The notes below the pieces were generated by a model. It was not told the origin of the DNA. It saw only the letters and a program-made list of their open reading frames with translations, and made no database searches. This document shows, one piece after another, positions 748-21,879 of a DNA stretch of 21,879 bases. The DNA is from Myxococcota bacterium (GTDB lineage Bacteria; Myxococcota; UBA4151). Position numbers and translations under genes: made by a program. How positions within the stretch are numbered: position 1 is the first letter of the stretch; every line of letters begins with the position of its first letter. The stretch is taken from NCBI GenBank assembly GCA_036338695.1, contig JAYZBQ010000040.1:1-21879 (forward strand), written 5' to 3'.

Positions 748-1986
748 ATGACCGCTCGCGTGCACATACCTTGGGTGACGCTCGCCGTTGCGACGACGGT
801 GATCGGAGCTTCTGTCGCAGCGTGGTGGAGCGTCGGTCTGCCCCTGACAGCCGACACAGCCGTGCGCTGCGGTGGGCGCGACGCGCTGGCGCTGCACCTG
901 GGACAGACCTGGCGGCTGATCTCGGCCGGCCTCTTGCACTCGGACCTCCACCATCTGCTCTGGAACCTCCTGCCAAGCTTGCCCATTCTGGTGCTGATCG
1001 AGCGACGACAAGGCAGCCTCACGGCGCTGGGTCTGACCCTCGGGTGCATCACCTACGGGCATGGCTTGGGCGCCTTGCTGCAAGGCGGCACCTCGGTCGG
1101 GTTTTCACCGGCGCTGTTCGGCCTGATCGCCGGCTTCTCCATTGTTAATGCTCGCCGTTACCCGCGTCTGGCGCGCCTGGGCACGTTCTACCTGATCGTC
1201 GGCGGATTCGCCTCACTTCGCTTCGCCAACGTCGACCTGGCGAGTCACCTCGGCGGCGTTCTGGCGGGGGGCTTCCTGAGCTTCTGGTGGAGCACCAGGC
1301 GGCGTGCGGGTGAGCTGATGCTCATCGCGCTCATGCCGCTGATGATGAGCTACACGCTGACTACACAAGCCACCGGCTGGTCGCTACCGGATCAAGGGCT
1401 CAAGCTCCAAGTCCACCCGACCCTGAGCGTCCAAGTCGACCCCACGACGCGGTGTTCGCCCGATGGTTTAGTCTGCGCCTCCGTACAGACGCAGCGCGTC
1501 GCAAGGCGGCACGACTTCCCTGCGTGGTCCGATCGATGCGCCGGTCATCTCGGCGCGCTCGGTCCGAGCCGCTGCCTAACGCAACGTCCCGAGCAGCTCT
1601 GCCAACTCGAACGCCGTGGTCTCTATGAACACTCCGTGTGCCTTCGGTCAGGCTCGGCGCGCGCCCTAAGCGCGCTGCGCAGCTTGATCCAGACGATCGA
1701 GTTGGTGCCCCCAAGCGATCAGCTGCCGACGGATAGCCTCTTCTCAAACGCCATACGAGCACACCGCCTCGGCGACACCGAGCGCGCACAGGCGCTGTAC
1801 AGGGAAGCGATGGCCGAGGCGCCACTCGACGCCAAGCGCCCGTTCCTGGCAGCGCTCCTCGAGCTCGATTTCACGGGCGATCTTGGCGCCGCCGAGCGGC
1901 TCGCTCGGCGTGCAACGACACTCGACGCAATACACCCAGATGGTCGAGCGTTGTTGCTCGAGATCCAGTCGAAGCGGTCGCCATGA
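748..1986 (+). CDS. Rhomboid family intramembrane serine protease with C-terminal Cys-containing domain and TPR-like helices
   Basis: WRLISAGLLHSDLHHLLWN (WR and HxxxN motifs), GFSP at the GxSG catalytic-Ser position, SHLGG catalytic His, several hydrophobic segments. C-terminal AQALYREAMAEAPLDA...AERLARRATTLDAIHPDG is TPR-like. Confidence 0.85.
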   Translation: MTARVHIPWVTLAVATTVIGASVAAWWSVGLPLTADTAVRCGGRDALALHLGQTWRLISAGLLHSDLHHLLWNLLPSLPILVLIERRQGSLTALGLTLGCITYGHGLGALLQGGTSVGFSPALFGLIAGFSIVNARRYPRLARLGTFYLIVGGFASLRFANVDLASHLGGVLAGGFLSFWWSTRRRAGELMLIALMPLMMSYTLTTQATGWSLPDQGLKLQVHPTLSVQVDPTTRCSPDGLVCASVQTQRVARRHDFPAWSDRCAGHLGALGPSRCLTQRPEQLCQLERRGLYEHSVCLRSGSARALSALRSLIQTIELVPPSDQLPTDSLFSNAIRAHRLGDTERAQALYREAMAEAPLDAKRPFLAALLELDFTGDLGAAERLARRATTLDAIHPDGRALLLEIQSKRSP

Positions 1987-3859: not shown

Positions 3860-6800
3860 ATGCTCAAGCGCTCGCTACCTCTCATCCTCCTCCTCAGCCT
3901 GGCTTGCGACCCGCAGTCCATCCCGAGCAATTCGGGCTTGGACACGGGAGCCACCACAGGGAGCGACCGTGACGCCGGCGACCAGACGCCAAGCGATGCG
4001 GGGCAGGTGGTCATCGTCCCCGACACCGGCCCTCAACCCGACGGCTGTGAAGATGGAGACGGAGATGGTTACGGGCTCGGCGTCGACTGCCTCGGCAGCG
4101 ACTGCGACGACAACAACCCATGGCTCCACCCCGGCATCGTAGAGAACCGCCCGTTTTGCAGCGTCGACGATGACCCGAACTGTGACGCGAGCGACCTCCC
4201 CTTCTGCGACGGCATCGACAACAACTGCGACGGCGTGGTCGACGAGGGCTGCCCATGCCAAGACGGCGTGGTGGAGAGCTGCTACGACGCGCCTCGAGCG
4301 ACCCTCGCCAACGGCTCGTGTACCGCTGGTTTCAGGACCTGCAACGCAGGCATCTGGAGCGACTGTCAGGGGGCGGTGCTGCCGGCGAACGAGCTGTGCA
4401 ACGGGCGGGACGACGACTGCGACGGGCGCGTCGACGAAGAGGTCTTGAACGCCTGCGGTGTCTGTGGCGAGGTCCCCGAAGAGCGCTGCAACGGTCAAGA
4501 CGATGACTGCGACGGCGAGATCGATGAGGGCGTGCTCAATGCTTGCGGCGGCTGCGGCGAGCTCCCGGCTGAGCTGTGCGGCCCGAACAATCGAGGCGAC
4601 GGCATCGACAACAACTGCAACAATGTCGTCGACGAAGGCTGCCTGCCTGTCCAGGGCGACAGCTGCGACGGGCGCACGCGCCAGCCATGCTACGAGGGCC
4701 CAGGCCACACGGCGGGCCGAGGCGTCTGTCAGGGTGGCTTGCGTGACTGCGTCAACGACGTCTGGGGAGCCTGCGTCGGTCAGGTCCTCCCGGAGGCACA
4801 AGAGCAATGCGGCAATGGGATCGATGACGACTGCAACGGCCTGATCGACGACAACTGCCAACCTCGAGATTGCATCCCGGTCGCCGAGATCTGCGGCGAC
4901 AACATCGACAACGACTGCGACGGGGTCGTCGACGACGGCTGCCCCGGTCATGGCTGCACCCCCTCTGACGAGGTCTGCGACGGCAACGACAACGACTGCG
5001 ACGGGCTCGTCGACGAGGGCGTGATGAACGCCTGCGGTCGCTGCGGCAACGTGCCAGCAGAGCAATGCGGCGACGGGGTCGATAACAACTGCAACGGCGC
5101 CATCGACGAAGGCTGCGCCTGTGAGCCGGTGGTCGCCTGTGATGACGAACCTGGCAGCCCCTTAGGGTGCCGCACCTGCTACGCTGGTCCGCAGGGAACC
5201 GAAGGCGTCGGTCAGTGCAGCGGCGGTCTGCAACGCTGCGGCGAGCAGTGGCTCGATGAATGCATCGGGCAGGTCCTGCCAGCGCAAGAAGTCTGCGACG
5301 GCATCGACAACGACTGCGACGGAGACGTCGATGAGGGCGTGCTCAACGCTTGCGGTCAGTGTGGGCTCGCACCGGTCGAGGTCTGCGACGGCGTAGACAA
5401 CAATTGCGACGGCGAGATCGACGAGGGCGTTCTGAACGCCTGCGGCGGTTGCGGCGCCGTGCCCGATGAGGTGTGCGACGGGCAGGACAACGACTGCGAC
5501 GGCGAGGTGGATGAGTTTGTCCTCAACGCCTGTGGGCAGTGCGGAGAGGACCCCGTTGAGGTCTGCGACGGTCAGGATAATGACTGCGACGGGTTGGTCG
5601 ATGAAGGCGTCGTCAACGCCTGCGGTCTATGCGACGCCCCCTGCTACGAAGAGCCGTGGCAAGGCGAGAACTCGTGGAATGCGGGTGAGCGTGAGGGCAC
5701 CGAGGTGGAGCCAGGGCGCGGCGTAACGCTCGGTCAGAGCGCGTGGAGCCTACCATTCATCTGGGTCGCCAACTCAGCTGAGAACACTGTCTCTAAGCTC
5801 AACACCAGCAACGGCGCTGAGCTTGGGCGCTATCGGATGCCACCAGGCAGCGGCAGCCCGAGCCGAACCGCCGTGGACCTGGACGGGAACGTCTGGGCGG
5901 GGAACCGGTCTGGGGGCACCTTGGTCAAGATCGCAGTGGCGGAAGCAGACTGCATTGACCGCAACAACAACGGACAGATCGATACAAGCCGCGACGCCAA
6001 CAACAACAACCGGATCGACGGCAACGAGATCATGGCCGCGAACGCAGACGAATGCGTGGTCTTGGTGGTCAACCCACCAGGAAACTGCGTGCGAGCGGTC
6101 GCTATTGACGCTGAGAACCGTGTCTGGGCGGGCATGTGGGACGAGTCCCGTTACTACGTGATCAACGGCACCACCGGTCAGATCACTGGCTCGGTCGACT
6201 CGGGCGGCAACCCCTATGGCGCCGTGATCGACGGCAACAACCTGTGGTCATCCAACCGCGGCAACGGCACGCTGACGCGTATCAACGTGCAGCAGGTCCA
6301 GCGCACCGGGACCTGGTCGGTCCCTGCGGGGAACCTCTATGGCATCGGCGTCGACCCCGAAGGCGACGTCTGGATCGGTCAGTACAGCGCTGGCACGGTC
6401 GCCGAGTTCAACCCGCGCAGCCAGTCCTTCCGGCGGATCTCGCTCATGGGGTACCCGCGCGGGATCGCCATCACGGGGGCTGGTGAGGTCTTCGTAGGGC
6501 TCTACAGCGCCAACCGAATCGGCCGGATCAACAGCCGCACCGGTCAGGTCTTGGGTCAGTACGGCGTGGGTCAAACCGGCGTGATCGGCGTGGCGCTCGA
6601 TGATCAAGGCTTCGTCTGGGGCGTGAACTACAGCTCGCAGTCAGCGACCAAGATGCGGCAAAATGGGCAGGTCGTCGGCAGCCACCCTGTGGGGTCCGGA
6701 CCGTACACCTACTCGGACATGACCGGACAGGCGCTGCGCACCTTCACCGTGCGCAACGGCACCTGGCGCCGTCGCTTCGACACGGGTCGCGAGGCGGGCG

Positions 6801-7051
6801 ATGCCATCTTCCACCACGCCAACTGGACAGGCGATATGCCCGCCGAGACGCGGATCCGTCTTCGGTTCCGAAGCGGGCGCACACCGGCTGAGACCGACGC
6901 CGCGGATTACGGTCCGTGGACCGAGCTCAACCCGGCGCCGATCTCGGTCCCGATGGGGCGCTATCTCGACGTACAGGTCGGGTTGATCTCGAACGGGCGC
7001 GAGGCGCGCCCCTTCTTCCGAGACGTCGTCATCCACTGGTCACGCCTCTAG
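3860..7051 (+). CDS. Lipoprotein with 12 Cys/Asp 'putative metal-binding' (MopE-like) repeats and a C-terminal Vgb/NHL-type beta-propeller
   Basis: Lipobox SLAC. Twelve CDGxDNDCDGxVDE-type repeats, then FIWVANS...SPSRTAVDLDGNVW...YGIGVDPEGDVW...PYTYSDMTG propeller blades. Starts 1 nt after the upstream stop. Confidence 0.88.
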   Translation: MLKRSLPLILLLSLACDPQSIPSNSGLDTGATTGSDRDAGDQTPSDAGQVVIVPDTGPQPDGCEDGDGDGYGLGVDCLGSDCDDNNPWLHPGIVENRPFCSVDDDPNCDASDLPFCDGIDNNCDGVVDEGCPCQDGVVESCYDAPRATLANGSCTAGFRTCNAGIWSDCQGAVLPANELCNGRDDDCDGRVDEEVLNACGVCGEVPEERCNGQDDDCDGEIDEGVLNACGGCGELPAELCGPNNRGDGIDNNCNNVVDEGCLPVQGDSCDGRTRQPCYEGPGHTAGRGVCQGGLRDCVNDVWGACVGQVLPEAQEQCGNGIDDDCNGLIDDNCQPRDCIPVAEICGDNIDNDCDGVVDDGCPGHGCTPSDEVCDGNDNDCDGLVDEGVMNACGRCGNVPAEQCGDGVDNNCNGAIDEGCACEPVVACDDEPGSPLGCRTCYAGPQGTEGVGQCSGGLQRCGEQWLDECIGQVLPAQEVCDGIDNDCDGDVDEGVLNACGQCGLAPVEVCDGVDNNCDGEIDEGVLNACGGCGAVPDEVCDGQDNDCDGEVDEFVLNACGQCGEDPVEVCDGQDNDCDGLVDEGVVNACGLCDAPCYEEPWQGENSWNAGEREGTEVEPGRGVTLGQSAWSLPFIWVANSAENTVSKLNTSNGAELGRYRMPPGSGSPSRTAVDLDGNVWAGNRSGGTLVKIAVAEADCIDRNNNGQIDTSRDANNNNRIDGNEIMAANADECVVLVVNPPGNCVRAVAIDAENRVWAGMWDESRYYVINGTTGQITGSVDSGGNPYGAVIDGNNLWSSNRGNGTLTRINVQQVQRTGTWSVPAGNLYGIGVDPEGDVWIGQYSAGTVAEFNPRSQSFRRISLMGYPRGIAITGAGEVFVGLYSANRIGRINSRTGQVLGQYGVGQTGVIGVALDDQGFVWGVNYSSQSATKMRQNGQVVGSHPVGSGPYTYSDMTGQALRTFTVRNGTWRRRFDTGREAGDAIFHHANWTGDMPAETRIRLRFRSGRTPAETDAADYGPWTELNPAPISVPMGRYLDVQVGLISNGREARPFFRDVVIHWSRL
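5288..5635 (+). repeat. Four degenerate in-frame 90-bp tandem coding repeats (30-aa unit EVCDGxDNDCDGxVDEGVLNACGxC)
   Basis: Units begin at 5288, 5378, 5468 and 5558, an exact 90-nt period, with many third-position differences. Confidence 0.9.
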
Positions 7052-7344: not shown

Positions 7345-8409
<1,065 letters not shown>

Positions 8410-8473
8410 GGACGTCTCCTCATGACGCCGCTGCCTGCCAAGATTGTTTCGGTGGGTAAAGCCCTAACTCGAC

Positions 8474-11428
8474 TCAGGCTTCGTCATCACCGACCGGACC
8501 CAAAGGGCTCGAGGGATCATCGAGCTGCTCCGGCGTAATAAAGACCTCACGCGGTTTGGCGCCACGCGACGGACCGACGAGCCCTTCGGCTTGCATCCGA
8601 TCGATGATCCGGCCCGCGCGGGTGTAGCCGATGCTGAGTCGGCGTTGCAGCCACGACGTGCTCACCTGTCCCTCGTTCGCTGCGATCCGCAGACAGTCCA
8701 TCCACAGCGGATCATAGGGATCATCGCTGCTGCCCTCGCCGCCGCTCGTATCCGCCTCGGACATGGCGGTGATGGACTCATCGTAGTCCGGCTCACCTTG
8801 TGCGCGCAGGTGGTTGATGATGCTCGTGAGCTCATCCGTCGAGACAAATGCGCCCTGGACGCGGCTCGGGTCCGAGGAATTGGGAGGCACCACGAGCATG
8901 TCACCGTTTCCGAGCAGCCGCTCGGCGCCCGTGCGCCCAATGATGGTCTTCGAGTCCTGCGAGGCGCTCACGCGGAACGCGATGCGCGACGGGAAGTTGA
9001 CCTTGATCACGCCGGTCACGACGTCCACCGAAGGACGCTGCGTTGCCAGGATCACGTGCATCCCGGCGGCGCGCGCTTTTTGCGCCAGGCGCCCAACCGA
9101 CTCCTCAACGTCCTTACCTGCGGTCATCATCAGGTCAGCGAACTCGTCGACCACCACCAAGATGTAAGGCATCGGCTCAGGGTCGTTGTCTTCGCTCAGG
9201 GCGTGATCCGGCGGCAGCGTCACCTTGTTGTCCTCGCTGCCGTCTGCGGTGACGTCCACCGCCTCGACCTCGCGCTCCACCACCTGCATGTCGGCGGCGT
9301 CACCTTGCTCATCGACGACCATCTTGAGCTCGGGACCACGCTCAGCCTGCATCTCAGCATGCGCCGCCTCAGCCTCTGCGAGGATCTGCTCGTTAAGCTC
9401 TTTCCGAGCCTGCGCCCGCTCTTTGAGCGTGAGCTCGAGCCGATCGTTGTACTCTTTGATGTTCTTCACGCCTGACTTCGCGAGCTGCTCGTAGCGGCGA
9501 TCCATCTCTTTACACGCCCACTGCAGCGCAACGGTCGCCTTCGCCGGGTCGGTGATCGGCGGCACCATCAGGTGTGGGATGTCATTGTACGGCGCAAACT
9601 CGAGCATCTTCGGATCGATCAAGAGCAGCCTCAAGTCCATCGGGCTAAAGCGATAGAGCATGCTCAAGATCATGGTGTTGACGCCCACCGACTTACCTGA
9701 GCCGGTGCCACCCGCCACCAGCAGGTGCGGTGTCTTGGCGAGGTCCATGTAGAAACTGCGGCCTTCCCCGTCGCGCCCGAGCGCCATCGGCAGCGCCGCC
9801 TTGCTGCTCGCCCAGGCAGGGTCCGCAAGCAGCTCCTTGAGATAGACGGTCAGGCGCGTTCGGTTCGGGATCTCAATACCGACCGTGCTCTTCATCGGCA
9901 GGGGCGCAATGATCCGTGTCGAGCGAGCGCCGAGCGCCATCTGAAGATCGTCGGCGAAGCCAGCGATCTTGCTGACTTTGATCCCCGGACCCGGCTCGAA
10001 CTCATAGAGCGTCACGGTCGGCCCTGGGCGGATCTCAATGACCTTACCCTCGATCCGGAACTCGGCGAGCTTCTCGGTGATTTTACGCGCTGTCTCCTGC
10101 AGCCACTCCGTGTCGAGATCCTTGGCATCGGGCGCTTTGTACGCAAGCAGGTCCATGCTCGGCAGCTCCCACTCGCCCCGCTTTTTGCGCTTCTTCTTAC
10201 GTTCCATTTTCTTGCGCAGGATCTCACGAGCCTTGTCGGCCTCGCTCTGCGCCTCTTTGGCTTTGGACTCCGGCACCTTGGGGGTCTTGGCAGCGATAAT
10301 GCGCGGCGCAGGCTCCGGCTCAGCCGCCGGCGCCTCAGCTGCCGGTGCGGGAGCCGCTGGCTGATCGGCAGCTGCCTCAGGCGCTGGCGTCTCAGGCTCC
10401 CCCTTTGCTTCCGCTTTGAGTTTGGCGACCCAGGCGGGCTCTTCGTCCTGCGCCTTCCCTGCCGGCGTCTTAGGCTCGTCAGCCGGCTCAGGCTCCGTGG
10501 CCTCCGGGGGCACCGACACCAGCGAGTTGGTCGAGAAAAACTTCTCCTCGAAATCATCCGCTGCATCGGTCGGCGCCTCGCTGGGAAAGTCGACGACATT
10601 ATCCGGCGGCTTGGTCCCGTCACGCCGGCGCGCCTTGCTCGCTTTGGCGCGCGCCTTGGCCTCAGCCTTCTCTTGTTTGCGCGCCTCACGCTCCGCCTCT
10701 TTGAAGCGCTTCTGCTCGAGCCGACGCTCCTTGCGTTCCTCGGCCTCGAGCGCCCAACGCGCCGAGAGCTCTTGGCGCCGCTGACGGATCGCTGTCCGGA
10801 GCTTATCGAGGCGCAGCGCCCGCTGACACATGATCATCAACCCGCGCGGCCCCACGCCGACCAGCTCGCTAAACGCTAAGGTCCCGAGCGTCGCCAAGAT
10901 GAAGGTCGCGCCCCAATGCGAGAACACACCGACCACGCCGTTGCTCACGACCAAACCGAGCAGCCCGCCCGGTCGGAACGTAAAGAGCTCAGCGGGAACC
11001 CAGATCTGCGACAGGCCGGTGGCGGCGACCAGCGCCAGCGTCATGCCGACCCCGCTGCGCAAGCTCATCATGCGACGCGAGCGCCGCAACAGCTGCACCG
11101 CCATCTGCAGCAACGCGAGCCCCACGATGTAGGCTGTGCAGCCCAGCGCGCTGAACAACGCGGCGGCGATGTAAGCGCCGGCTGGGCCAATCAAGTTTTG
11201 GATCGAGTCCGCGCCACCGTTCGTTGAGTTCAAGTCGGTGTGTGAATAGCTCCCGAGGCTGCCGAGAATGAGCGCCGCTGCGAGCAGCGCCAACATGCCA
11301 GCGAGCTCAGGCGGCGTGGTGGGCACCAAGGTCGTGTGCTCGGCGGCCTTCGCCTTGGTCGGCTTGGCTGTTTTGGGGCGAGCGCTTGGACGGCGTTTGG
11401 GAGCGGCCACAGAAACCTCCGGAGTCAC
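8474..11428 (-). CDS. ftsK: DNA translocase FtsK/SpoIIIE
   Basis: N-terminal 4TM domain (NLIGPAGAYIA), Pro/Ala/Glu linker, PHLLVAGGTGSGKS Walker A, VVVDEFADLM Walker B, LATQRPSVDV, gamma domain STSWLQRRLSIGYTRAGRIID. The GTG start is approximate. Confidence 0.97.
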   Translation of the reverse strand: MTPEVSVAAPKRRPSARPKTAKPTKAKAAEHTTLVPTTPPELAGMLALLAAALILGSLGSYSHTDLNSTNGGADSIQNLIGPAGAYIAAALFSALGCTAYIVGLALLQMAVQLLRRSRRMMSLRSGVGMTLALVAATGLSQIWVPAELFTFRPGGLLGLVVSNGVVGVFSHWGATFILATLGTLAFSELVGVGPRGLMIMCQRALRLDKLRTAIRQRRQELSARWALEAEERKERRLEQKRFKEAEREARKQEKAEAKARAKASKARRRDGTKPPDNVVDFPSEAPTDAADDFEEKFFSTNSLVSVPPEATEPEPADEPKTPAGKAQDEEPAWVAKLKAEAKGEPETPAPEAAADQPAAPAPAAEAPAAEPEPAPRIIAAKTPKVPESKAKEAQSEADKAREILRKKMERKKKRKKRGEWELPSMDLLAYKAPDAKDLDTEWLQETARKITEKLAEFRIEGKVIEIRPGPTVTLYEFEPGPGIKVSKIAGFADDLQMALGARSTRIIAPLPMKSTVGIEIPNRTRLTVYLKELLADPAWASSKAALPMALGRDGEGRSFYMDLAKTPHLLVAGGTGSGKSVGVNTMILSMLYRFSPMDLRLLLIDPKMLEFAPYNDIPHLMVPPITDPAKATVALQWACKEMDRRYEQLAKSGVKNIKEYNDRLELTLKERAQARKELNEQILAEAEAAHAEMQAERGPELKMVVDEQGDAADMQVVEREVEAVDVTADGSEDNKVTLPPDHALSEDNDPEPMPYILVVVDEFADLMMTAGKDVEESVGRLAQKARAAGMHVILATQRPSVDVVTGVIKVNFPSRIAFRVSASQDSKTIIGRTGAERLLGNGDMLVVPPNSSDPSRVQGAFVSTDELTSIINHLRAQGEPDYDESITAMSEADTSGGEGSSDDPYDPLWMDCLRIAANEGQVSTSWLQRRLSIGYTRAGRIIDRMQAEGLVGPSRGAKPREVFITPEQLDDPSSPLGPVGDDEA

Positions 11429-11480
11429 GTCGATAGACGTCCCCCTAATAGTCGGCCCAAAGCCTCCAGATCTTTAGGAT

Positions 11481-11951
11481 TTACTTGGTTTTCTTGAGCG
11501 CCGCGACGATCTGCGGCGTCTGCTTGCTCACCGCCTTAAGGAGCGCCTCGACATCCGCCCCTTGGACCTTGTGCGTCCCAAAAATAGTCCCGGTCGTGTT
11601 CACGACGTTGAGCACCATCGTGTAGCGCCCCTTCTGTTGGGTCACCGTGCTGACCAGGACGTGCGTGCAATGCGCGAGCTTGGCGGTCTGAGCGGCGCAG
11701 GCCTCCGGGTCCTTCATGCAGCGCGTCTCGCTGCCAACGGCGCTCTGCATCGCCCGCAGCTTAAGGATCGCCTCGATGTCGGCGCGGCACTTGACCTCGA
11801 CGTTCGACGCCTTGAGCGCCTTCTCGAGCTGGTTGCACATCAACGGATCGAGCGTGGCGCCCACCGCCTTCGGGACGCCGCCTTCGGGGCTCACGCTGTC
11901 CACGAGCACGACCGGACTCGCCAGGATCATGCCCAGCCAGAGCACGGGCAT
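11481..11951 (-). CDS. Exported hypothetical protein, possible CsgG/TolB-N-like alpha/beta fold
   Basis: Start overlaps the TlpA stop (TAATG). Short hydrophobic N-terminus. The pattern DIEAIL...C...CAAQTAKL...VLVSTV...YTMVLNVVN resembles a common myxobacterial periplasmic family (recognition only). Confidence 0.65.
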   Translation of the reverse strand: MPVLWLGMILASPVVLVDSVSPEGGVPKAVGATLDPLMCNQLEKALKASNVEVKCRADIEAILKLRAMQSAVGSETRCMKDPEACAAQTAKLAHCTHVLVSTVTQQKGRYTMVLNVVNTTGTIFGTHKVQGADVEALLKAVSKQTPQIVAALKKTK

Positions 11952-12499
11952 TACAGGAACTTCCGAATCGTCGTAAGCAGCTTCTTGTCGTCACCCTTCT
12001 TCAGGTTGAAGCCCGACTTGGCGTAGACGATCTTACCGCTCTGATCCACGAGGTAGAGCGTCGGCAACGCCGCCGCCTTGTAACGCCTCATGAGCACGTT
12101 CATCCCGTCGTGAAAGACCGGTACGGTCAGGCCCATCTCACCGATCCGCTTCTTGAGCTTGTTCTTGCCGTCCGTGCCTTTGTCCGTCCCCACCACAAAA
12201 GCTGCGAAACCTTGCGACTTGAGCTGCGACGACCACTTATCGAGCAGCGGGACCTCATCCTGACAGCCGGCGCACCAGGTGGCGTAAAAACTGATCGCAA
12301 GCAGCTTGATCGACTTATCCTTCGCACGCTTTCCGATGGTCCGTCGCAGCACCGCTCGGCGCAACCCGCTCTCTTTGGGGTTCAGCGTCCGGAGCGTAAA
12401 GCTCGGCGGCTCACTGCCCACGGCGAGCAGCTCAGGCTTCTCGTCGGCGAGGGCGGTCACAGGGACCAAAAGGAGTGCACACAACACGCTGCGAATCAT
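11951..12499 (-). CDS. TlpA-family thiol:disulfide oxidoreductase (exported)
   Basis: Signal peptide (ALA-D), PSFTL, SFYATWCAGCQDEVP CxxC motif, cis-Pro motif LPTLYLVDQSGKI. ATGA overlap with hisS. Confidence 0.92.
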   Translation of the reverse strand: MIRSVLCALLLVPVTALADEKPELLAVGSEPPSFTLRTLNPKESGLRRAVLRRTIGKRAKDKSIKLLAISFYATWCAGCQDEVPLLDKWSSQLKSQGFAAFVVGTDKGTDGKNKLKKRIGEMGLTVPVFHDGMNVLMRRYKAAALPTLYLVDQSGKIVYAKSGFNLKKGDDKKLLTTIRKFL

Positions 12500-13761
12500 T
12501 CGACCTCCATCACGGCGGAGCGTACCGTATCGAACTCTAAAGAAATGTTCACGGTACTTCCATCTGCCATGCGACGTAACGACGCCGCATTTGATTCTAA
12601 TTCTGTCGCTCCGAGGACAAGGGCATATCGACAGCCGCGCCGATTAATTGCCTTCATCTGTGCCTTGACCGACCGGCCCGACAGGTCTGCGACCACGCAA
12701 CACCCGCTCGCACGCAGCTCGGTGACCCAGCGCAACACCGTGTGGTGATCGGCGCCCGGCGCGGCGACGACGCCGAGGTCGGGCGACGCTGCGCCGAGGC
12801 TCCGCCCGTGCGCCTGCGCAACGAGCAGCAGCCGCTCCGTCCCGCCTGCAAAGCCGACCGCTGCCACGTCCGGTCCCCCGACGGTCTCAAGCAGCCCGTC
12901 GTAGCGACCGCCCGCCAGCACAGCGGCTTGTGCGCCCAGCTTCTCGGTGAGCGCCTCAAAGACGGGTCCGCGGTAGTAATCCAAGCCGCGCACCATCCGC
13001 TTGTTCTCACGGACCTCCACGCCGAGCGCCACCAAGCCCTCATAGACCGCCTCGTGGTGCGCTCGATGCGCGTCGTTGAGGTGGTCCATCGGCAGCGGCG
13101 CCTCGAGCAACAGCTCCTGCACCTTGGCGTCTTTGGAGTCGAGCAGCCTGAGCGGGTTGCGCTGCGCCGTGTCGAGCGCGCCCTGCGGGAGCTCATCACG
13201 GCGCGCGTCCAGATACTCGGTCAGCTTCGCCAGGTAGCCGGGCCGGGTGTCCGGTCCGCCGACGTTACCGAGCTCGATCACGACGTCGTCGAGCCCGAGG
13301 GCGTCGAGGATCGCCTTCGCCAGCGCAATGCACTCGATGTCGGCGACCGGTGACGGCTCACCAAAGCACTCAAGCCCGATCTGGTGAAACTGGCGATAAC
13401 GCCCCTTCTGCGGACGCTCCCGGCGAAACATCGGGCCGGCGTAAAAGGCGCGTAACTTCGGGTCGGTCCGCAGCAAGCTGTGCTGAACCACCATCCGCGC
13501 CACGGCGGCGGTCGCCTCGGGTCTCAGAACTAGGTGCGAGCCGTCTCGATCCTCAAAGGCGTACATCTCTTTGCCGACGACGTCGGTCCCCTCGCCCACG
13601 CTGCGCACAAAGAGCTCTTGGTGCTCTAGAATCGGCGTCCGCACCTCCTGCGCGCCGTACGCCAACGCAAGGCGTCGCGCCACCTGCTCGACCTCGATCA
13701 GACCGGCGGCTTGCTCGCCAAACAGGTCGTTCATTCCCTTGACCGAACGGTAGCTCGTCAT
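12496..13761 (-). CDS. hisS: Histidine--tRNA ligase
   Basis: KGMND, TDVVGKEMY, LRPEATA, FRRERPQKGRYRQFHQ, VRGLDYY, AGGRYDGL. ATG at 13761 (MTSYRSVKG) fits the family N-terminus better than the track start at 13803. Confidence 0.97.
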   Translation of the reverse strand: MTSYRSVKGMNDLFGEQAAGLIEVEQVARRLALAYGAQEVRTPILEHQELFVRSVGEGTDVVGKEMYAFEDRDGSHLVLRPEATAAVARMVVQHSLLRTDPKLRAFYAGPMFRRERPQKGRYRQFHQIGLECFGEPSPVADIECIALAKAILDALGLDDVVIELGNVGGPDTRPGYLAKLTEYLDARRDELPQGALDTAQRNPLRLLDSKDAKVQELLLEAPLPMDHLNDAHRAHHEAVYEGLVALGVEVRENKRMVRGLDYYRGPVFEALTEKLGAQAAVLAGGRYDGLLETVGGPDVAAVGFAGGTERLLLVAQAHGRSLGAASPDLGVVAAPGADHHTVLRWVTELRASGCCVVADLSGRSVKAQMKAINRRGCRYALVLGATELESNAASLRRMADGSTVNISLEFDTVRSAVMEVE

Positions 13762-13827
13762 CTCGATCCCTGCGCTCCAGGCTGCGTGGTCCTGTGTATG
13801 CAACCGCCAGCGGCGGACAACAACCGC

Positions 13828-13867
13828 AAAAACGAGAACGACCGACGCAAGCGCCGGTCGCCTCGTT
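13828..13867 (-). terminator. Intrinsic terminator after pnp
   Basis: Minus strand ACGAG-GCGACCGGCG-CTTG-CGTCGGTCGT-TCTCG-TTTTT: GC stem, CUUG tetraloop and U-tract. Confidence 0.8.
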
Positions 13868-13888
13868 CGCTAAGCTGCTGCAGCAGAC

Positions 13889-16153
<2,265 letters not shown>

Positions 16154-16228
16154 CGTCCACTACTCCCGAGCGTGCCTGCGAGGGCAACCGCTCTATGTCG
16201 TGGAGTGACTAAGCGCCGCGTAGAAACT

Positions 16229-16279
16229 AGAAGAATGGGTGCAGAACCGTCAGGCTTTCGGTGCTGGACACATCCTTCT
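16229..16279 (-). promoter_or_regulatory. Long imperfect stem-loop in the pnp 5' leader (candidate RNase III processing site)
   Basis: RNA AGAAGGAUG pairs with CAUUCUUCU, then GU/AC, CAG/CUG and ACCG/CGGU with single mismatches, about 75 nt upstream of the pnp start. Confidence 0.6.
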
Positions 16280-16328
16280 TCGCGTGTGCTTAGCCGCTCC
16301 GTTGAGGTGCTCACACCACGTGAGCCCT

Positions 16329-16364
16329 TATAAAGCGACGGGCAGCGCTCTGGCTGCCCGTCAC
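16329..16364 (-). terminator. rpsO terminator/attenuator hairpin
   Basis: Perfect 10-bp inverted repeat GACGGGCAGC/GCTGCCCGTC (16337-16362) followed by a short TTTAT on the minus strand. Confidence 0.75.
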
Positions 16365-16380
16365 CTCTAAGTCATCTGTC

Positions 16381-16647
16381 TTACCGACGAATACCTAAGT
16401 CGGCGATGAGGGCACGATAGGCCTCAACATCTTTACGCTTCAGGTAATCCAGCAAGCTGCGACGCTTGGAGACGATCTTCAGCAGACCACGACGGCTGTG
16501 GTGGTCTTTGCTGTTGTCTTCAAAGTGCGGACGCAGGTCGTTGATACGCGCCGTCATGAGCGCAATCTGGACCTTGCTGTTGCCGGTGTCTTGCGGGTTG
16601 TCCCCGTACTTCTCGATAATCGCTTTGCGATCCTTTGCGGTGAGCAT
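16381..16647 (-). CDS. rpsO: 30S ribosomal protein S15
   Basis: [16 protein letters not shown]...[23 protein letters not shown]...LGIRR. ATG at 16647 follows an AAGGAGG RBS and gives 88 aa. Confidence 0.98.
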
Positions 16648-16740
16648 GTGCTCCTCCTTCACGCGCCTTGTTATCCACACTGAACCGCAGACGCGGGCAG
16701 CCCAAGCGCTCGGCTTGTGAAGCAAGGCTGCAAGGAGCGC
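16648..16740 (-). promoter_or_regulatory. Structured rpsO leader (candidate S15 autoregulatory element)
   Basis: Nested stems GCAGCC/GGCTGC (16697-16731) and CAAGC/GCTTG. A weak sigma70-like TTCAAG-N18-TACCTT lies just upstream on the minus strand. Confidence 0.45.
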
Positions 16741-16996
16741 AAGGTAATTCGGTTGGTTGCCGAACTTGAAACACTGAGTTGTGAAACATCAATAATCAGG
16801 ACAAAATACTGTTGTAGAATGCTGCGTAACGAGAGTGTTCAAGCGCTCAACGGCGACCGGGTGACGGTGGATCGAACTTTTGCGGGCACAGGACTATTTG
16901 GTGACTACGCGCTCTTCTTCCCAGCCCAAACCCTGTCGAGCGGCTCCAACGCAGGCGGGCTCCACCTACACCGCATCGAGGATATTTTGCTCCGCT

Positions 16997-19900
16997 TTGA
17001 AGCTGCTGCACCGCTCCCTTAGGCGCTGCGCACCGCTCGCTGTCTGTGTGAGCCTGCTCGGCAGCCCGTCGATGGCGCTCGCGGTGCTCGGGCCGGCGCC
17101 TGGGAGCGTCACGGCGGAGACGCTGACGCTGCCGACCACGCCCGGCTCGCTTCAAGGCGCTGGCGACGAGCTGGCGCTGGAGGCTTTCAGCGGTCAGGCG
17201 CAACACCAAGTTACCATCGAGCTCCCTGCCGGACGCGCAGGCGTCGCGCCGTTGCTGACTTTGCGCTACGACGGCAACCTCGGTGACGGACCGCTCGGAC
17301 CGGGTTGGACCCTCGACGTGCCTCAGATCCGTCGCAGCGTCCGGCGCGGCGTTCCGTCGTACACCGCTGCGGATACGCTCGAGCTGGTTGGCGTCCCCGG
17401 CGCCAACGGGCGCCTCCTACCGCTCGAGGACGGTACGTATCGTGTCCTTGGGCAGGGAGATCGCCTCCGCGTGCTCCCGCGTGATGGCGGCTTTCGCATG
17501 CTGACACCCGACGGTGGATTGTGGTTGTTTGGGGCGACCGAGGCGACGCGACAGACGACCGTACGCGGCGATTTTGCGTGGCTCGCAGGCGCCTATGAGC
17601 ACCCGACCGGTCAGGTGATTCGGTACACCTATCAGCAGCTCGACGGGCACGCCTACCTGGCGCAGATCACCTACCCTCTCGAGCGAAAGGTGCAGCTCAG
17701 CTACCTGCCCCGGGAGAGCGCCCTGTTCCGCCATCGAGCGGGGATGCCTCAGCGCTGGTCGCAGACACTCAGCCAGCTCGACGTCCGCGTCCGAGGGCAG
17801 CGCTACAGCCGCTGGCAGCTCGATTACGAGCGCACGAACCAGACCCCTCGCCTGGCGAGCGTTCAGCGCTTTGGCCAAACCGACGCCACGCGCCGACCGC
17901 CGCGGCGATTTTCCTATCGAGAGCCGGTGGCGCCGTCGTCGATCAGCTCCTTTGCCGGCGCGCCCTTCGCGCTGTCGAACCCGAACGTCACGCTGACCGA
18001 CGTCGACGGCGACGGGCTCGTGGACTTGGTGAACCTGCGCGGCGCCGACGCACAGTGGGCGCGCAACGCGGGCGACCGGTTCGAGCCTCCGCAGGCGCTC
18101 GAAGGACCGGATGAGACGCTCGCCTCCGGGCGGTTGCGGCTCATGGATATCAACGGCGACGCGCGGGCGGACCTCCTCGTGCAGCGCGGCGTGTGGATCC
18201 CCTGGCTCAACCAAGGCGCCGGTTACCGTGAACACACACCGATCGACGGCTCCGACGGCTTGAGCTTAGGAGGCGCGCAGGTGTTCGCCGACCTCGACGG
18301 TGACGGGATCGCCGAGCTGCTGCGCTCGAGCGGTAACGGGCTGGCGATTTTTCAAGGGGAAGCCGGCGCGCTGGGTGAGGAGCGGCTCGTCGACCTCCCG
18401 CCCGAGCTGAGCGGCTACAGCTTGCAGGATGCGCGCCTGCGTATCCAAGATATCACGGGCGACGGCTTAGCCGACTTCATCGTGCTCGAGCCGACCCACT
18501 TTACGCTTTTTGAAGGGTTGGGCGACGGCGGGGTCACCGCCGGCGTCCGCCAGGAACTACCGCGCCAGATCGTCGACTATGGCGCGAGCTACTTTCGCGA
18601 CCTTGACCGGGACGGCTGCGTCGATTTTGTGCTCTTTGTCGACGCGTCGGTCTTTTGGTTTCCGCGCCGTCCGGACGGCACCTTTGCTGCGGCGCGGCAG
18701 ATCGCTGCGCCCAGCGGAGCCGACAACACCAGCCGAATCCACCTCGGTGACCTCAACGGCAACGGCACGCTCGATGTGATCTGGAGTCAAAACCAGCAGG
18801 TGTGGGTCATGGAGCTGGTCGGCGACGCCAGCCGCGGTCTGCTCGAGGTCATCGACAACGGCTTGGGGCGGAGCCAGATGATCCGCTACACAAGCACCCG
18901 CAGCCTCGCAGCCATGGCTTCACGAGCCGGCTCGCCCTGGTCTCGGCAGCTCGCGACCATCTTACCGGTCGTCTCCCGCATCGAGACGCGCTTCGCCGAC
19001 GTGCACACCGCGCCGCGCGAGAAGCTGGTCGTGGTGGCTGATCCGATCTGGGATCATGAAGAGCGCAGCTTCGCTGGCTTTGGACAGGTCACGACGCGCC
19101 AGCTCAGCGCATCGACCCGCGAGACCCTGGTCACGCAAACGCAGCTCGCCCCCGGTCTAGGCGAAGCCCGGCCTTTACGCGGGCGGACGCTCACCATCGA
19201 GCGACGAGACGCCGACGGACGACGCTTCGATCGCGTCACGCACGACTGGCAGCTGCGCCGACCGGAGGCGCTCGCTGCGCAGCCGCTCGCAGCCCGAGCC
19301 GTGAACGTGGCGACCGTGCGGCAGGTCTATGAGGGCGCCGAGGAGCCGCTGACGCTCCGGACGACGCGTCTGTTCAATGAGCAGGGTGACGCGCTCGAGC
19401 TGCGACACCTGGGCGTCGAGGACCGCTCCGGCGATGAGCAGATCGTCCGGATGCGTTACCTCTACCTCACCGGCGCTTATCACCTCTGGGGCGCTCAAAC
19501 TGAGCGCTCCGTTCACGCGCTCAACGATGAGCTCGTCGCCAAGACCCGCTACCTCTACGACGGCGCGATGGAGCCGCTCCCCCATGGCGAGGCGACCCGG
19601 GGCTGGCTCCGGCAGGAGCTCGGGTGGCTCGAATCCGAGCAACGCTGGGTGCTGCGTCGGGCCTTCGACTACGATGAGCACGGCAACGTCACGCGCCGCT
19701 ACCGAGGCGGCGTCTGGCGGCGCATCGACTATGACGCGGACGGGCTGTTTGCGATCGCAGAGCATGTGGCGCCCAACCCCGAGCGGACGCTCAGCGTGCG
19801 CGCCCAGTGGGACCCGACCCTCGGCACCCTTGAGCGCCTCATCGACGCAGCAGGCGTCGAGCATGTGTTTGGGTACGACGGGCTCGGTCGGCTCACCACA

Positions 19901-21879
19901 CGCGCCCTGATGGGCCAAAACCCACACCTCACCATCGACTACACCCTGCTCAGCCCGCTCCCAACGGTGACGCGCAGGCTGATCGACGGGGAGGCGGGGA
20001 CCATCGTTGAGCATCAGCGCTACAACGGCGGCAGTGAGCTGGTGGCGCGCATCACCGAGCTTGGTCCCTCGCGCCGGATCGTCTCCCAATACACTCGGCG
20101 CAACGCACGCGGCTTGGCGGCGACGACCTGCGAAGCCTTCTACATGACCAGCCCCGAGATCCCCGAACAGCTCCCTCAGCGTACCCCGTGCGCGCAGCAT
20201 CGCTTTGACGCGCAAGGGCGACCGCTGACGTCCACCGATGCCCGCTCTATCGAGACGCAGTGGAGCTACCGGGCGCTGGAGTCCACATCGCAGACCGGAG
20301 GCATGAGCGCTGAGCTGAGGCGCCGAGATGGGCTCGATCGCCCAAGCGTCACGCGACGCACCGTCGAAGGCGTCGACCAAGAAGCCCAAGCCGAATACGA
20401 CGCCGCCGGCCGGCTGCGGCGTCTGGAGCTCAATCAAGGTCAAGCGAGCCACACCTTTGGCTACGACACCCTCGGTCGGCTGCTCGAGGCTGAAGACCCC
20501 GACCAAGGCCGGCGTGCGCACACGTATGATGATCATGACCGGATCGTGACGACTCAAAACGCGGCCGGCGAGACCATCAGCTATCGCTATGATGACGCCG
20601 GTCGCTTACTGTCTGAGAGCGGCAGCCGGGGGACTCAGCGCAGCTACCATTACGACGCGCCGCGCGCCGGCACCCAAGGCGGGCGCGAGGCAGGTCGACT
20701 GGCGTGGGTTGAGGAGCCGACCGGGACGATCGCCTTTGGCTACGACGCCTTCGGGCGCGTCCAATCTCAGCGTCGCTTCATCGCCGGGCAAGAGGCTCAT
20801 GAGCGGCGAACCTACAGCCCCTCAGGTAGGCTCCTAATGCACACCTTTGGCGGCGGCCCCACCGTCGACTACGGCTACGATCTCGGCGGCCGTTTGGTGC
20901 GCGCCGCGCCCTTCTGGGAGGCGATCGAGCTCGACGCAGCAGGGCGTCCGCTCAAAGAAGAATTTCAGAACGGCGTCCGCCACGACAACGAGCGAGATGG
21001 ACTCGGTTTCCTCATCGCTCAGGTGATCGCACGCGGCGAGACAACCCTGAGCGATCTCGCCATCGAGCGCAATGCGCGCGGGGCGACGACGCAGATCACC
21101 GATCGTCTGGCGACCGGCATGGACCACAACCAGCGCTTCACCTACGACCCGGGCCATCGGCTGCGCGCCGCCACGGTCGCCGGTCGCACCATCGAGCTGA
21201 CCTACGATGCGCTGGGCAACCTGACGGCGCGACGCGTGGACGGCGCGCCACCCGAGGGGCTGGTCACCGGTGCGTTTCGCTACCAAGAGGCACACCCCCG
21301 CCAGCTGGTGCAAGCGGGCGAGGTCACCCTCGCCTACGACGCGGCTGGCCGTGCGACCGAGGTCGGCGACCGGCGCCTGACCTGGGACGCCTTTGACCGC
21401 TTAATTGCGACGGAGCGGGACGGTCAGACCGAGACGCATCGCTACGGGCTGGGCGGCTTGCGCACGCTGACCGATCGCGCCGACGGCCGAACCGAGCGCT
21501 GGTTTAGCGAGCACCACCTGCGGCTCGGCGCCATGGATCACTTCTACGTCGAGGTGAACGGGCGACGGGTCGTCCGCGTGCGTCAAGTTGCGCCGGAGCA
21601 AGCCGCGCAAGCGCCTGTGTCACCGCCTTGGTTGCCGCTGCTGCTTGCGCTGCTGACGCTTTGGGCGAGCAGACCCCGCCAGGCTCGCCCCGCCTGGGCG
21701 CGCACGGCGGCGGCGGGCGGCATTTTGATTAGTTTGGGCGCGTGCGCCTGTGCGCCGACCGAGGCGCCCGGTGTGTTTTACCTCCACCGCAGCCACGCCG
21801 TGGGCCCCACCCTGATCACGGACCAAGCGGGCACACTCGTCGACGAGCGCCGGTTTGCACCCTATGGGCACCGCCTTGA
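16997..21879 (+). CDS. Secreted SpvB/FG-GAP/TcdB-midN/YD-repeat Rhs protein (TcB-TcC-like fusion), partial at 3' end
   Basis: Manual translation of frame +2 shows no stop from 16997 to the window end. SpvB-like IELPAGRAGVAPLLTLRYDGNLGDGPLGPGWTLDVPQIRR, six DxxGDG-type FG-GAP motifs (about 18000-18780), LLEVIDNGLG...WDHEERSFAGFG (TcdB midN-like), many YDxxGRL repeats, and the start of the Rhs core (FYLHRSHAVGPTLITDQAGTLVDERRFAPYG). The start is TTG 16997 (gives a signal peptide) or ATG 17072. Confidence 0.93.
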   Translation, partial: MKLLHRSLRRCAPLAVCVSLLGSPSMALAVLGPAPGSVTAETLTLPTTPGSLQGAGDELALEAFSGQAQHQVTIELPAGRAGVAPLLTLRYDGNLGDGPLGPGWTLDVPQIRRSVRRGVPSYTAADTLELVGVPGANGRLLPLEDGTYRVLGQGDRLRVLPRDGGFRMLTPDGGLWLFGATEATRQTTVRGDFAWLAGAYEHPTGQVIRYTYQQLDGHAYLAQITYPLERKVQLSYLPRESALFRHRAGMPQRWSQTLSQLDVRVRGQRYSRWQLDYERTNQTPRLASVQRFGQTDATRRPPRRFSYREPVAPSSISSFAGAPFALSNPNVTLTDVDGDGLVDLVNLRGADAQWARNAGDRFEPPQALEGPDETLASGRLRLMDINGDARADLLVQRGVWIPWLNQGAGYREHTPIDGSDGLSLGGAQVFADLDGDGIAELLRSSGNGLAIFQGEAGALGEERLVDLPPELSGYSLQDARLRIQDITGDGLADFIVLEPTHFTLFEGLGDGGVTAGVRQELPRQIVDYGASYFRDLDRDGCVDFVLFVDASVFWFPRRPDGTFAAARQIAAPSGADNTSRIHLGDLNGNGTLDVIWSQNQQVWVMELVGDASRGLLEVIDNGLGRSQMIRYTSTRSLAAMASRAGSPWSRQLATILPVVSRIETRFADVHTAPREKLVVVADPIWDHEERSFAGFGQVTTRQLSASTRETLVTQTQLAPGLGEARPLRGRTLTIERRDADGRRFDRVTHDWQLRRPEALAAQPLAARAVNVATVRQVYEGAEEPLTLRTTRLFNEQGDALELRHLGVEDRSGDEQIVRMRYLYLTGAYHLWGAQTERSVHALNDELVAKTRYLYDGAMEPLPHGEATRGWLRQELGWLESEQRWVLRRAFDYDEHGNVTRRYRGGVWRRIDYDADGLFAIAEHVAPNPERTLSVRAQWDPTLGTLERLIDAAGVEHVFGYDGLGRLTTRALMGQNPHLTIDYTLLSPLPTVTRRLIDGEAGTIVEHQRYNGGSELVARITELGPSRRIVSQYTRRNARGLAATTCEAFYMTSPEIPEQLPQRTPCAQHRFDAQGRPLTSTDARSIETQWSYRALESTSQTGGMSAELRRRDGLDRPSVTRRTVEGVDQEAQAEYDAAGRLRRLELNQGQASHTFGYDTLGRLLEAEDPDQGRRAHTYDDHDRIVTTQNAAGETISYRYDDAGRLLSESGSRGTQRSYHYDAPRAGTQGGREAGRLAWVEEPTGTIAFGYDAFGRVQSQRRFIAGQEAHERRTYSPSGRLLMHTFGGGPTVDYGYDLGGRLVRAAPFWEAIELDAAGRPLKEEFQNGVRHDNERDGLGFLIAQVIARGETTLSDLAIERNARGATTQITDRLATGMDHNQRFTYDPGHRLRAATVAGRTIELTYDALGNLTARRVDGAPPEGLVTGAFRYQEAHPRQLVQAGEVTLAYDAAGRATEVGDRRLTWDAFDRLIATERDGQTETHRYGLGGLRTLTDRADGRTERWFSEHHLRLGAMDHFYVEVNGRRVVRVRQVAPEQAAQAPVSPPWLPLLLALLTLWASRPRQARPAWARTAAAGGILISLGACACAPTEAPGVFYLHRSHAVGPTLITDQAGTLVDERRFAPYGHRL

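Follow-up and report, generated by a model that had tools for sequence, protein, structure and literature searches.

The window analysed here, 21,879 nucleotides that make up the entire contig C40 of the Myxococcota genome G000 (94% complete), ends inside a gene for an Rhs protein, and our subject is an insert of about 60 residues that separates the final YD strand of this protein from its Rhs core and consists of a spacer, a helix, an Arg-rich loop, a second helix, and a Cys. The open reading frame (ORF) of the Rhs protein, 16880..>21877 on the + strand, encodes 1666 residues and is open at the contig end; the relative P0002 begins at a position matching TTG 16997, which is therefore the likely start. 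Signal peptide, SpvB domain, beta-propeller, and RHS repeats were all found in this one protein, the combination that, with a variable C-terminus and the propeller described as integrin-like, marks polymorphic toxins of the TcdB/TcaC pathway in the accessible text of Zhang et al. (2012; PMC3482391). The autocleavage motif, toxin, and immunity gene lie outside the assembly, and neither a continuation of the gene (its missing 3′ part) nor a paralogue was found in G000. The last YD strands of the shell are at 21542–21580. The features of the gene are given below, with signal peptidases I and II as SPase I and II and AlphaFold model confidence as pLDDT.

16997..17083 (+): likely start and predicted Sec/SPase I-type signal peptide (start of P0002; hydrophobic window at residues 50–71; cleavage site placed by eye)
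17183..17380 (+): SpvB-like N-terminal domain, TcB-like (Pfam PF03534, residues 102–167, E 4e-17)
18599..19135 (+): FG-GAP repeats (best stretch) and TcdB_toxin_midN (PF13517, residues 574–635; PF12256, residues 611–752)
19160..21589 (+): YD/RHS beta-barrel shell (PF05593, TIGR01643; pLDDT ~95; best fold match TcdB2-TccC3)
21563..21589 (+): last strand before the insert (residues 1562–1570; AlphaFold strand E802–810, model numbering)
21590..21622 (+): Pro/Ala spacer, predicted disordered (sequence; pLDDT <50 at model residues 815–822)
21623..21670 (+): helix 1, predicted membrane helix resembling a stop-transfer or C-terminal sorting signal (hydropathy; model helix H824–837; conservation among homologues)
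21671..21703 (+): Arg-rich loop with 4 Arg and no acidic residue, predicted to be cytoplasmic and to serve as the internal signal's n-region
21704..21742 (+): helix 2, h-region and lipobox of the predicted internal SPase II signal (model helix H846–860)
21743..21745 (+): Cys1622, predicted lipidated +1 residue (conservation; a second Cys at 21749–21751 is an alternative)
21746..21769 (+): short linker from the Cys to the Rhs core (family median 16 residues, range 7–32)
21770..21879 (+): first part of the Rhs-associated core (plug), truncated where the contig stops (model strands E871–877, E883–887, E893–896, pLDDT ~91)

The insert and the loop that carries it

Transmembrane (TM) helices and signals were assigned by hydropathy with a scale and rules of our own. 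Helices 1 and 2, together with the N-terminal signal peptide, gave the three most hydrophobic windows of 11, 15, and 19 residues in the 1666 residues of the protein. The first-pass annotation of this DNA had described a Pro/Ala spacer, a helix, a basic loop, a second helix, and a Cys at 21743, and each of these motifs was found where it had placed them, with helix 1 at 21623–21664 by hydropathy and the core beginning at 21776. Contigs from two of four sequencing runs (X2 and X3, belonging to two studies) read across the insert and leave every letter inside it unchanged, while run X1 has no coverage of the insert and run X7 covers just its last ~40 bases; as the insert is unchanged in contigs of two studies, it is not an assembly artefact. 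Where labelled, the runs holding the Rhs gene are marine, estuary, or salt-marsh metagenomes, and there were no RNA runs among the listed holders. Among the ORFs of G000 with three or fewer hydrophobic segments, the insert is the sole internal hairpin found that is followed by [AGS]C, which argues that it is more than a chance occurrence. We concluded that the internal TM-basic-TM-Cys insert is real.

The structure of residues 761–1666 was modelled with AlphaFold from an alignment of 38 sequences. The barrel reached pLDDT ~95 and strands 1562–1570 and 1631–1637 were confident; the insert appeared as two helices at 48–61. A second model, of a same-genus orthologue with the whole core, behaved in the same way, and in both the barrel and core stood at ~90 and the insert at 44–61. 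The hairpin thus lies between two strands of one domain, and relatives lacking the insert link the same two strands through a turn of a few residues. The best Foldseek match was the Tc B-C complex TcdB2-TccC3 (PDB 4o9x; E 4e-38, TM-score 0.80 by query, ~830 residues aligned at 2.5 Å), of which the window's protein would be a natural B-C fusion with the same fold; a single-sequence search of the PDB gave no match. In the solved Tc structures, roughly the site of the insert is occupied by a short soluble loop. That the insert might loop out of the barrel, as the first-pass annotation had proposed to examine by AlphaFold, agrees with the low-confidence loop seen between two confident barrel strands. 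The loop that takes the insert is thus permissive and lies at the barrel's plug end, and model confidence, secondary structure, the insert-less relatives, and the tolerance of other inserts together suggest that it faces outward.

This loop holds other material in other clades, either a beta-rich domain of ~100 residues or amphipathic helices; further carriers of other inserts are L005, L006, L014, L017, and the P0153–P0228 group. P0089 and P0109 have a single helix ending A-Q-A, the hairpin of P0050 lacks a Cys and ends like an SPase I site, and P0088 has a short hydrophobic motif that we take to be one found at Chloroflexi C-termini. In L062:9972-11795 the hairpin is tandemly duplicated, with four helices and two Cys sites, the number of helices remaining even. 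A second modular site lies ~100 residues before the insert (about 21290–21320 in the window), where NHL or other passenger domains are inserted or, in an alternative form, the protein is split into a shell gene of ~1500 residues and a second gene with its own lipoprotein signal; the latter encodes LamG/Kelch/F5-8 domains, the last YD strands, hairpin, core, and toxin. This site was seen in P0309, P0249, L108:507-9233, L154:1-9047, P0124/P0128, P0304, and P0346. The core-less shells of ~1500 residues, considered as candidates for shells ending at the insert, end ~100 residues earlier.

Conservation of the hairpin and its Cys

Homologues were chosen without regard to the insert by an N-terminal search with residues 30–720 of one relative, which gave 593 matches; 120 were listed and all 120 were analysed. 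An Rhs core was present in 101 of these, and a hairpin rule in which Cys had zero hydrophobic weight found 31 hairpins directly before the core. In all 31 a Cys lies 10–19 residues past the last Lys or Arg. Two controls gave far lower values: internal hairpins in ORFs of G000 have a Cys at that spacing in 99 of 849 cases (12%), and the same test on helix 1 found a Cys in 5/31. P0113 also has a hairpin, missed by the rule; the remaining 69 core homologues have none. A tree built from 121 N-terminal regions placed the hairpin in two clades. A signal peptide was scored in 28 of the 33 hairpin proteins of this tree and recognised by eye in two more; the other three start inside a conserved N-terminal motif, probably owing to late start calls. 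No hairpin was found in the large clade without signal peptides, which favours the processing proposed below.

A larger set combined the N-terminal set with a profile search (226 proteins at 1e-30, of which the best 150 were listed), metagenome loci, and a phylum sample of 301 genomes, 14 of which matched at 1e-30 (one of these, the unpublished G195, was left out further on). It held 451 sequences with a core, 391 with enough sequence upstream, and 199 distinct hairpins, 168 of them below 50% identity. The Cys was found by rule in 165 of these 168 and by eye in two more. The residue before it (−1) is Ala, Gly, or Ser in 94% of the 165, and +2 is mostly Gly, Ser, or Ala; among 280 putative N-terminal lipoproteins of G000, picked by rule, the −1 residue is Ala, Gly, or Ser in 96%. 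The Arg-rich loops average 4.6 Lys/Arg versus 0.12 Asp/Glu (the rule demanded at least 2 Lys/Arg), and the spacers are rich in Ala, Gly, Thr, Pro, and Ser. By our own rules, the insert has the basic n-region, uncharged h-region, and small residue before an invariant Cys that define an SPase II signal. It shares with classical signals, including those of G000 lipoproteins, the stretch of ~14 uncharged residues, the A/G/S-Cys, and the small +2 residue, and differs from them in lying ~1580 residues into a chain that already has an SPase I signal, after a predicted stop-transfer helix; at residues 1598–1622 of P0001, it is thus not at the N-terminus of the precursor.

Among 98 core ORFs from loci L090–L184, the rule found a full hairpin in 68, the Cys alone in 4, and neither in 2; 14 were truncated at contig ends, and in the remaining 10 a stop codon lies close upstream. 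The pattern TM-basic-TM-Cys, whose conservation at this position had been suggested as a check on the annotation, was therefore kept among homologues. When same-genus proteins were compared with the window's, identity was 28–40% in the insert versus 60–75% in its flanks, indicating that the sequence itself is not what is kept. An Rhs orthologue was present in two of three same-genus genomes and was complete in one, where a DxxG autocleavage motif and a variable C-terminus are followed by a gene for a small membrane protein; among 29 tails, five similar pairs were seen. By source label the near relative P0004 is from Myxococcota, and hairpin carriers include Corallococcus and Myxococcus stipitatus; since the contig scan covered 3 of 64 parts, counts of carriers are no census.

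Evidence of a different kind came from genes in which the core and toxin stand alone. Among the best 150 of the 226 profile matches, 15 of 147 new proteins start with Met, a basic residue, an uncharged stretch, a Cys, a linker, the core, and the toxin (one looks mis-started). An upstream stop and a start codon were confirmed in the DNA of L109, L162/L168, L144, and L153, which represent three distinct locus types, and GGAGG or GAGGA precedes the start in all but L144. In L144, L153, and L168 a full-length Rhs gene precedes the stand-alone gene, which has a signal peptide of its own. Such genes behind a full-length gene resemble the orphan modules of Rhs loci. The Cys is invariant across 19 short core proteins. 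Since ordinary lipoprotein signals occur at the same junction, helix 2 and the Cys appear interchangeable with an N-terminal lipoprotein signal, and the proposal of the first-pass annotation that they form an SPase II-type signal gained support.

Several candidates for such genes were rejected. G052 (L185:7179-12397), taken as a shell gene plus a stand-alone core, proved to have a ~270-codon deletion and a change of frame before helix 2; the first cassette of L144 is a fused gene carrying a frameshift; another five short core ORFs, lacking a signal, have the appearance of frameshifts; and P0288 looks like a late start call. No shell gene ending directly after helix 1 was seen, although no search was aimed at such genes. 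At L153:1-2078 the hairpin and Cys remain in the full-length gene, which lacks the Rhs core and passes directly into a tail domain; a stand-alone lipoprotein core gene comes after it, and the related L144 retains the core. L153 is a single metagenome contig and might be a product of assembly or recombination.

Proposed processing and its alternatives

We propose that the insert is a stop-transfer helix joined to an internal lipoprotein signal, and that it probably gives rise to a two-chain, lipid-tethered toxin container, cleavage of the precursor yielding one chain for the shell and another, lipid-anchored, with the Rhs plug and toxin. The N-terminal signal peptide, which is seen in the sequence, would direct the ~1500-residue shell through Sec; helix 1 would stop translocation, leaving the Arg-rich loop in the cytoplasm, and helix 2 would restart it, an order of events suggested by the charge bias and the even number of helices. 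The even helix count retained in the duplicated hairpin of L062 favours this hairpin reading. Lgt would then lipidate the Cys, LspA cleave before it, and Lnt add a third acyl chain; LspA, Lgt, Lnt, and GspD, the secretin of type II secretion systems (T2SS), all scored above cut-off in G000. According to the predicted fold, the first strand of the new chain would pair with the last strand of the shell and the core would close the barrel, and the toxin, as in the known Tc and Rhs families, would be cut at a DPxG motif and kept inside. The closed container would be lipid-tethered at its plug end, an attachment that neither terminus could provide because the C-terminus is set free as the toxin. 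A membrane protease probably takes helix 1 out; where helix 1 is preceded by a Cys motif, as in a minority of members, this protease may be myxosortase-like. The container might then reach the outer membrane or surface by way of Lol or the T2SS and intoxicate touching cells, the least supported step, which could well go either way. We infer lipidation, cleavage, the staying together of the two chains, and surface location; the mechanism is weakest where helix 1 has to be removed and the container has to reach the surface.

A number of observations weigh against this proposal. Compared with the rest of the family, the two helices of the window score low, helix 1 at the 3rd and helix 2 at the 15th percentile (n=155), and the window's toxin domain is unassembled. 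No precedent for cutting by LspA at an internal site was found. No sorting motif precedes helix 1 of the window, a Cys is present in just 5/131 family spacers, and no rhombosortase scored above cut-off in G000, so that release from the inner membrane is left with no identified enzyme. Four signal-peptide proteins without the insert (P0115, P0132, P0139, P0141) nest inside the window's clade; as close relatives lacking it, they indicate that the insert is dispensable. P0050 has a hairpin without a Cys. Finally, the homologues are kin and not independent, so that their conservation amounts to consistency and not to a test, and the search profiles included the Cys, which biased part of the larger set toward the reading we favour.

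The lack of a sorting motif or enzyme in most members, the strong hydrophobicity of helix 1 across the family (median Kyte-Doolittle value 2.5), and the Cys-less P0050 would also suit a permanent anchor in the inner membrane, with the Cys lipidated and the chain uncut or the shell hung on helix 1, periplasmic until lysis or vesicle release. The lipobox-like −1 residue and the stand-alone helix 2-Cys signals speak instead for cleavage by LspA, and the inner-membrane retention signals are rare (Lys at +2 in 1/155, Asp at +2 in 7/155, Ala at +7 in 21/155; the K+2/A+7 rule is quoted in the accessible part of PMC5562445); we regard such an anchor as unlikely. The stand-alone lipoprotein genes raise the further idea that the lipidated chain of core and toxin departs from the shell and works alone through outer membrane exchange, the shell being a folding aid or having a role of its own, much as SitA toxins are lipoproteins transferred by TraAB (PMC5562445, in the part available). 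Against it, the first strands of the core are predicted to be part of the barrel, and all stand-alone genes of checked context with a visible upstream neighbour lie behind another gene end, that of a full-length Rhs gene in L144, L153, and L168. We give this free-chain idea only a slight chance. That the helices act on the target side, entering the victim membrane like the N-terminal TM domain of Rhs effectors of type VI secretion systems (T6SS), seems very improbable: a Sec substrate could hardly pass the translocon with two hydrophobic helices and an Arg-rich loop under established topology rules, the Cys and the stand-alone lipoproteins would go unexplained, and G000 has no gene for the T6SS sheath (VipB, 0 matches with the positive control working). 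What favours it is that entry assisted by a TM domain has been proposed for PAAR-Rhs effectors (10.1101/2024.02.26.582050, accessible part) and that no Tc A component was found as an injector, PF18276 and PF20220 giving no match in G000, nor PF18276 in five other carriers, in searches whose controls were silent. No PAAR or VgrG Pfam domain was found at the N-terminus of the window's Rhs protein.

An extension of the lipid-tethered container, which we consider doubtful, is a cartridge system in which the barrel would be reusable, the lipid-anchored plug-toxin chain exchangeable, and stand-alone cores loaded in trans, the lipid tail letting the loaded container ride the outer membrane to neighbouring cells. 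L153 would be a dependent case under such a system.

Relation to known systems

The closest match to the insert among known models is NF058595 invert_tail, an NCBIfam entry named ‘lipo-invert putative C-terminal anchoring domain’, whose members (L188–L190) have a strand, spacer, TM helix, Arg cluster, TM helix, lipobox Cys, linker, and completing strand, the same anatomy as the insert. The window's insert scored E 0.009 (profile 17–73 of 113) with 16.4 bits against a cut-off of 37, and so is not a member; weak matches occurred in 3/19 and 6/9 relatives, the best Rhs relative reaching 21.8 bits. In true members, present in 3/61 genomes, the same hairpin interrupts an Ig-like tail. The piece lipidated in them is the C-terminal ~40-residue tail of a small Ig-like domain, whereas here it would be a chain of 250–600 residues, and the window's family differs further in its RHS barrel host, the plug, autoprotease motif, and polymorphic toxin of that chain, and its occurrence also as separate genes. 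No paper describing this putative model was found.

MYXO-CTERM proteins, substrates of the myxosortase MrtX, resemble the insert in having a TM helix and Arg tail after a Sec-exported domain, and a rare internal MYXO-CTERM (MXAN_5598) is described (both from the accessible part of PMC11980579). Unlike them, the window and most relatives have no Cys before helix 1, and a second helix and lipobox follow it. Five MYXO-CTERM proteins scored above cut-off in G000; a Gly-Cys motif before helix 1 is present in a few Rhs inserts (L043; P0330 with 18.4 bits against a cut-off of 20). MYXO-CTERM (TIGR03901), GlyGly-CTERM, and other NCBIfam sorting models gave no match to the window's insert except the weak one to NF058595. 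Lipid-anchored polymorphic toxins of Myxococcota are known as SitA (PMC5562445), and YD shells predicted to be anchored through SPase II as teneurin-like proteins (PMC13018210); as far as the accessible parts of these sources go, both have the lipobox at the N-terminus, unlike the internal lipobox of the insert, and no internal processing is described.

Full-text literature searches turned up no account of an internal TM-TM-lipobox in Rhs or Tc proteins, supplements and most subscription papers lying outside their scope. The portions available of PMC3482391, PMC10433427, PMC5562445, PMC13018210, PMC11980579, PMC7861908, and 10.1101/2024.02.26.582050 contain no internal lipoprotein signal in an Rhs/Tc shell; those of PMC3482391 on TM helices and signal peptides mention no internal hairpin, and 10.1101/2023.06.07.544157, likewise available in part, does not mention Rhs, invert, or internal. 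The first-pass annotation had recognised no characterised system here. For toxin shells this stands, as no description was found; it does not hold for the hairpin device itself, which is catalogued as the putative anchor of Ig-like tails in NF058595. The device is thus known as a putative annotation and its use in a toxin shell appears undescribed, and the finding combines a known toxin architecture with a putative anchoring device.

The accessible part of PMC10433427 leaves open how large myxobacterial Rhs toxins with signal peptides stay at the surface and how, with no T6SS, they are delivered, and anchoring from mid-chain is a concrete answer offered by the window's family. Processing of an internal signal by Lgt and LspA could also be tested cleanly in this family, with the stand-alone genes as a natural control that has no counterpart in the Ig-tail cases, and the cultured genera among its carriers bring such a test within reach. 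Predictors that read N-termini alone would miss all such lipoproteins.

Elsewhere in the window, 748–1986 (+) encodes a rhomboid protease that has a long C-terminal extension, falls short of the rhombosortase cut-off, and lies 15 kb from the Rhs gene. A predicted lipoprotein of 1063 residues, encoded at 3860–7051 (+), combines numerous MopE-like repeats rich in Cys and Asp with a Vgb-like propeller. The genes at 7345–16153 (−) are presumably of the housekeeping kind (cyclophilin, FtsK, HisS, PNPase). Directly upstream of the Rhs gene, at 16001–17000, GC content falls to 56%.

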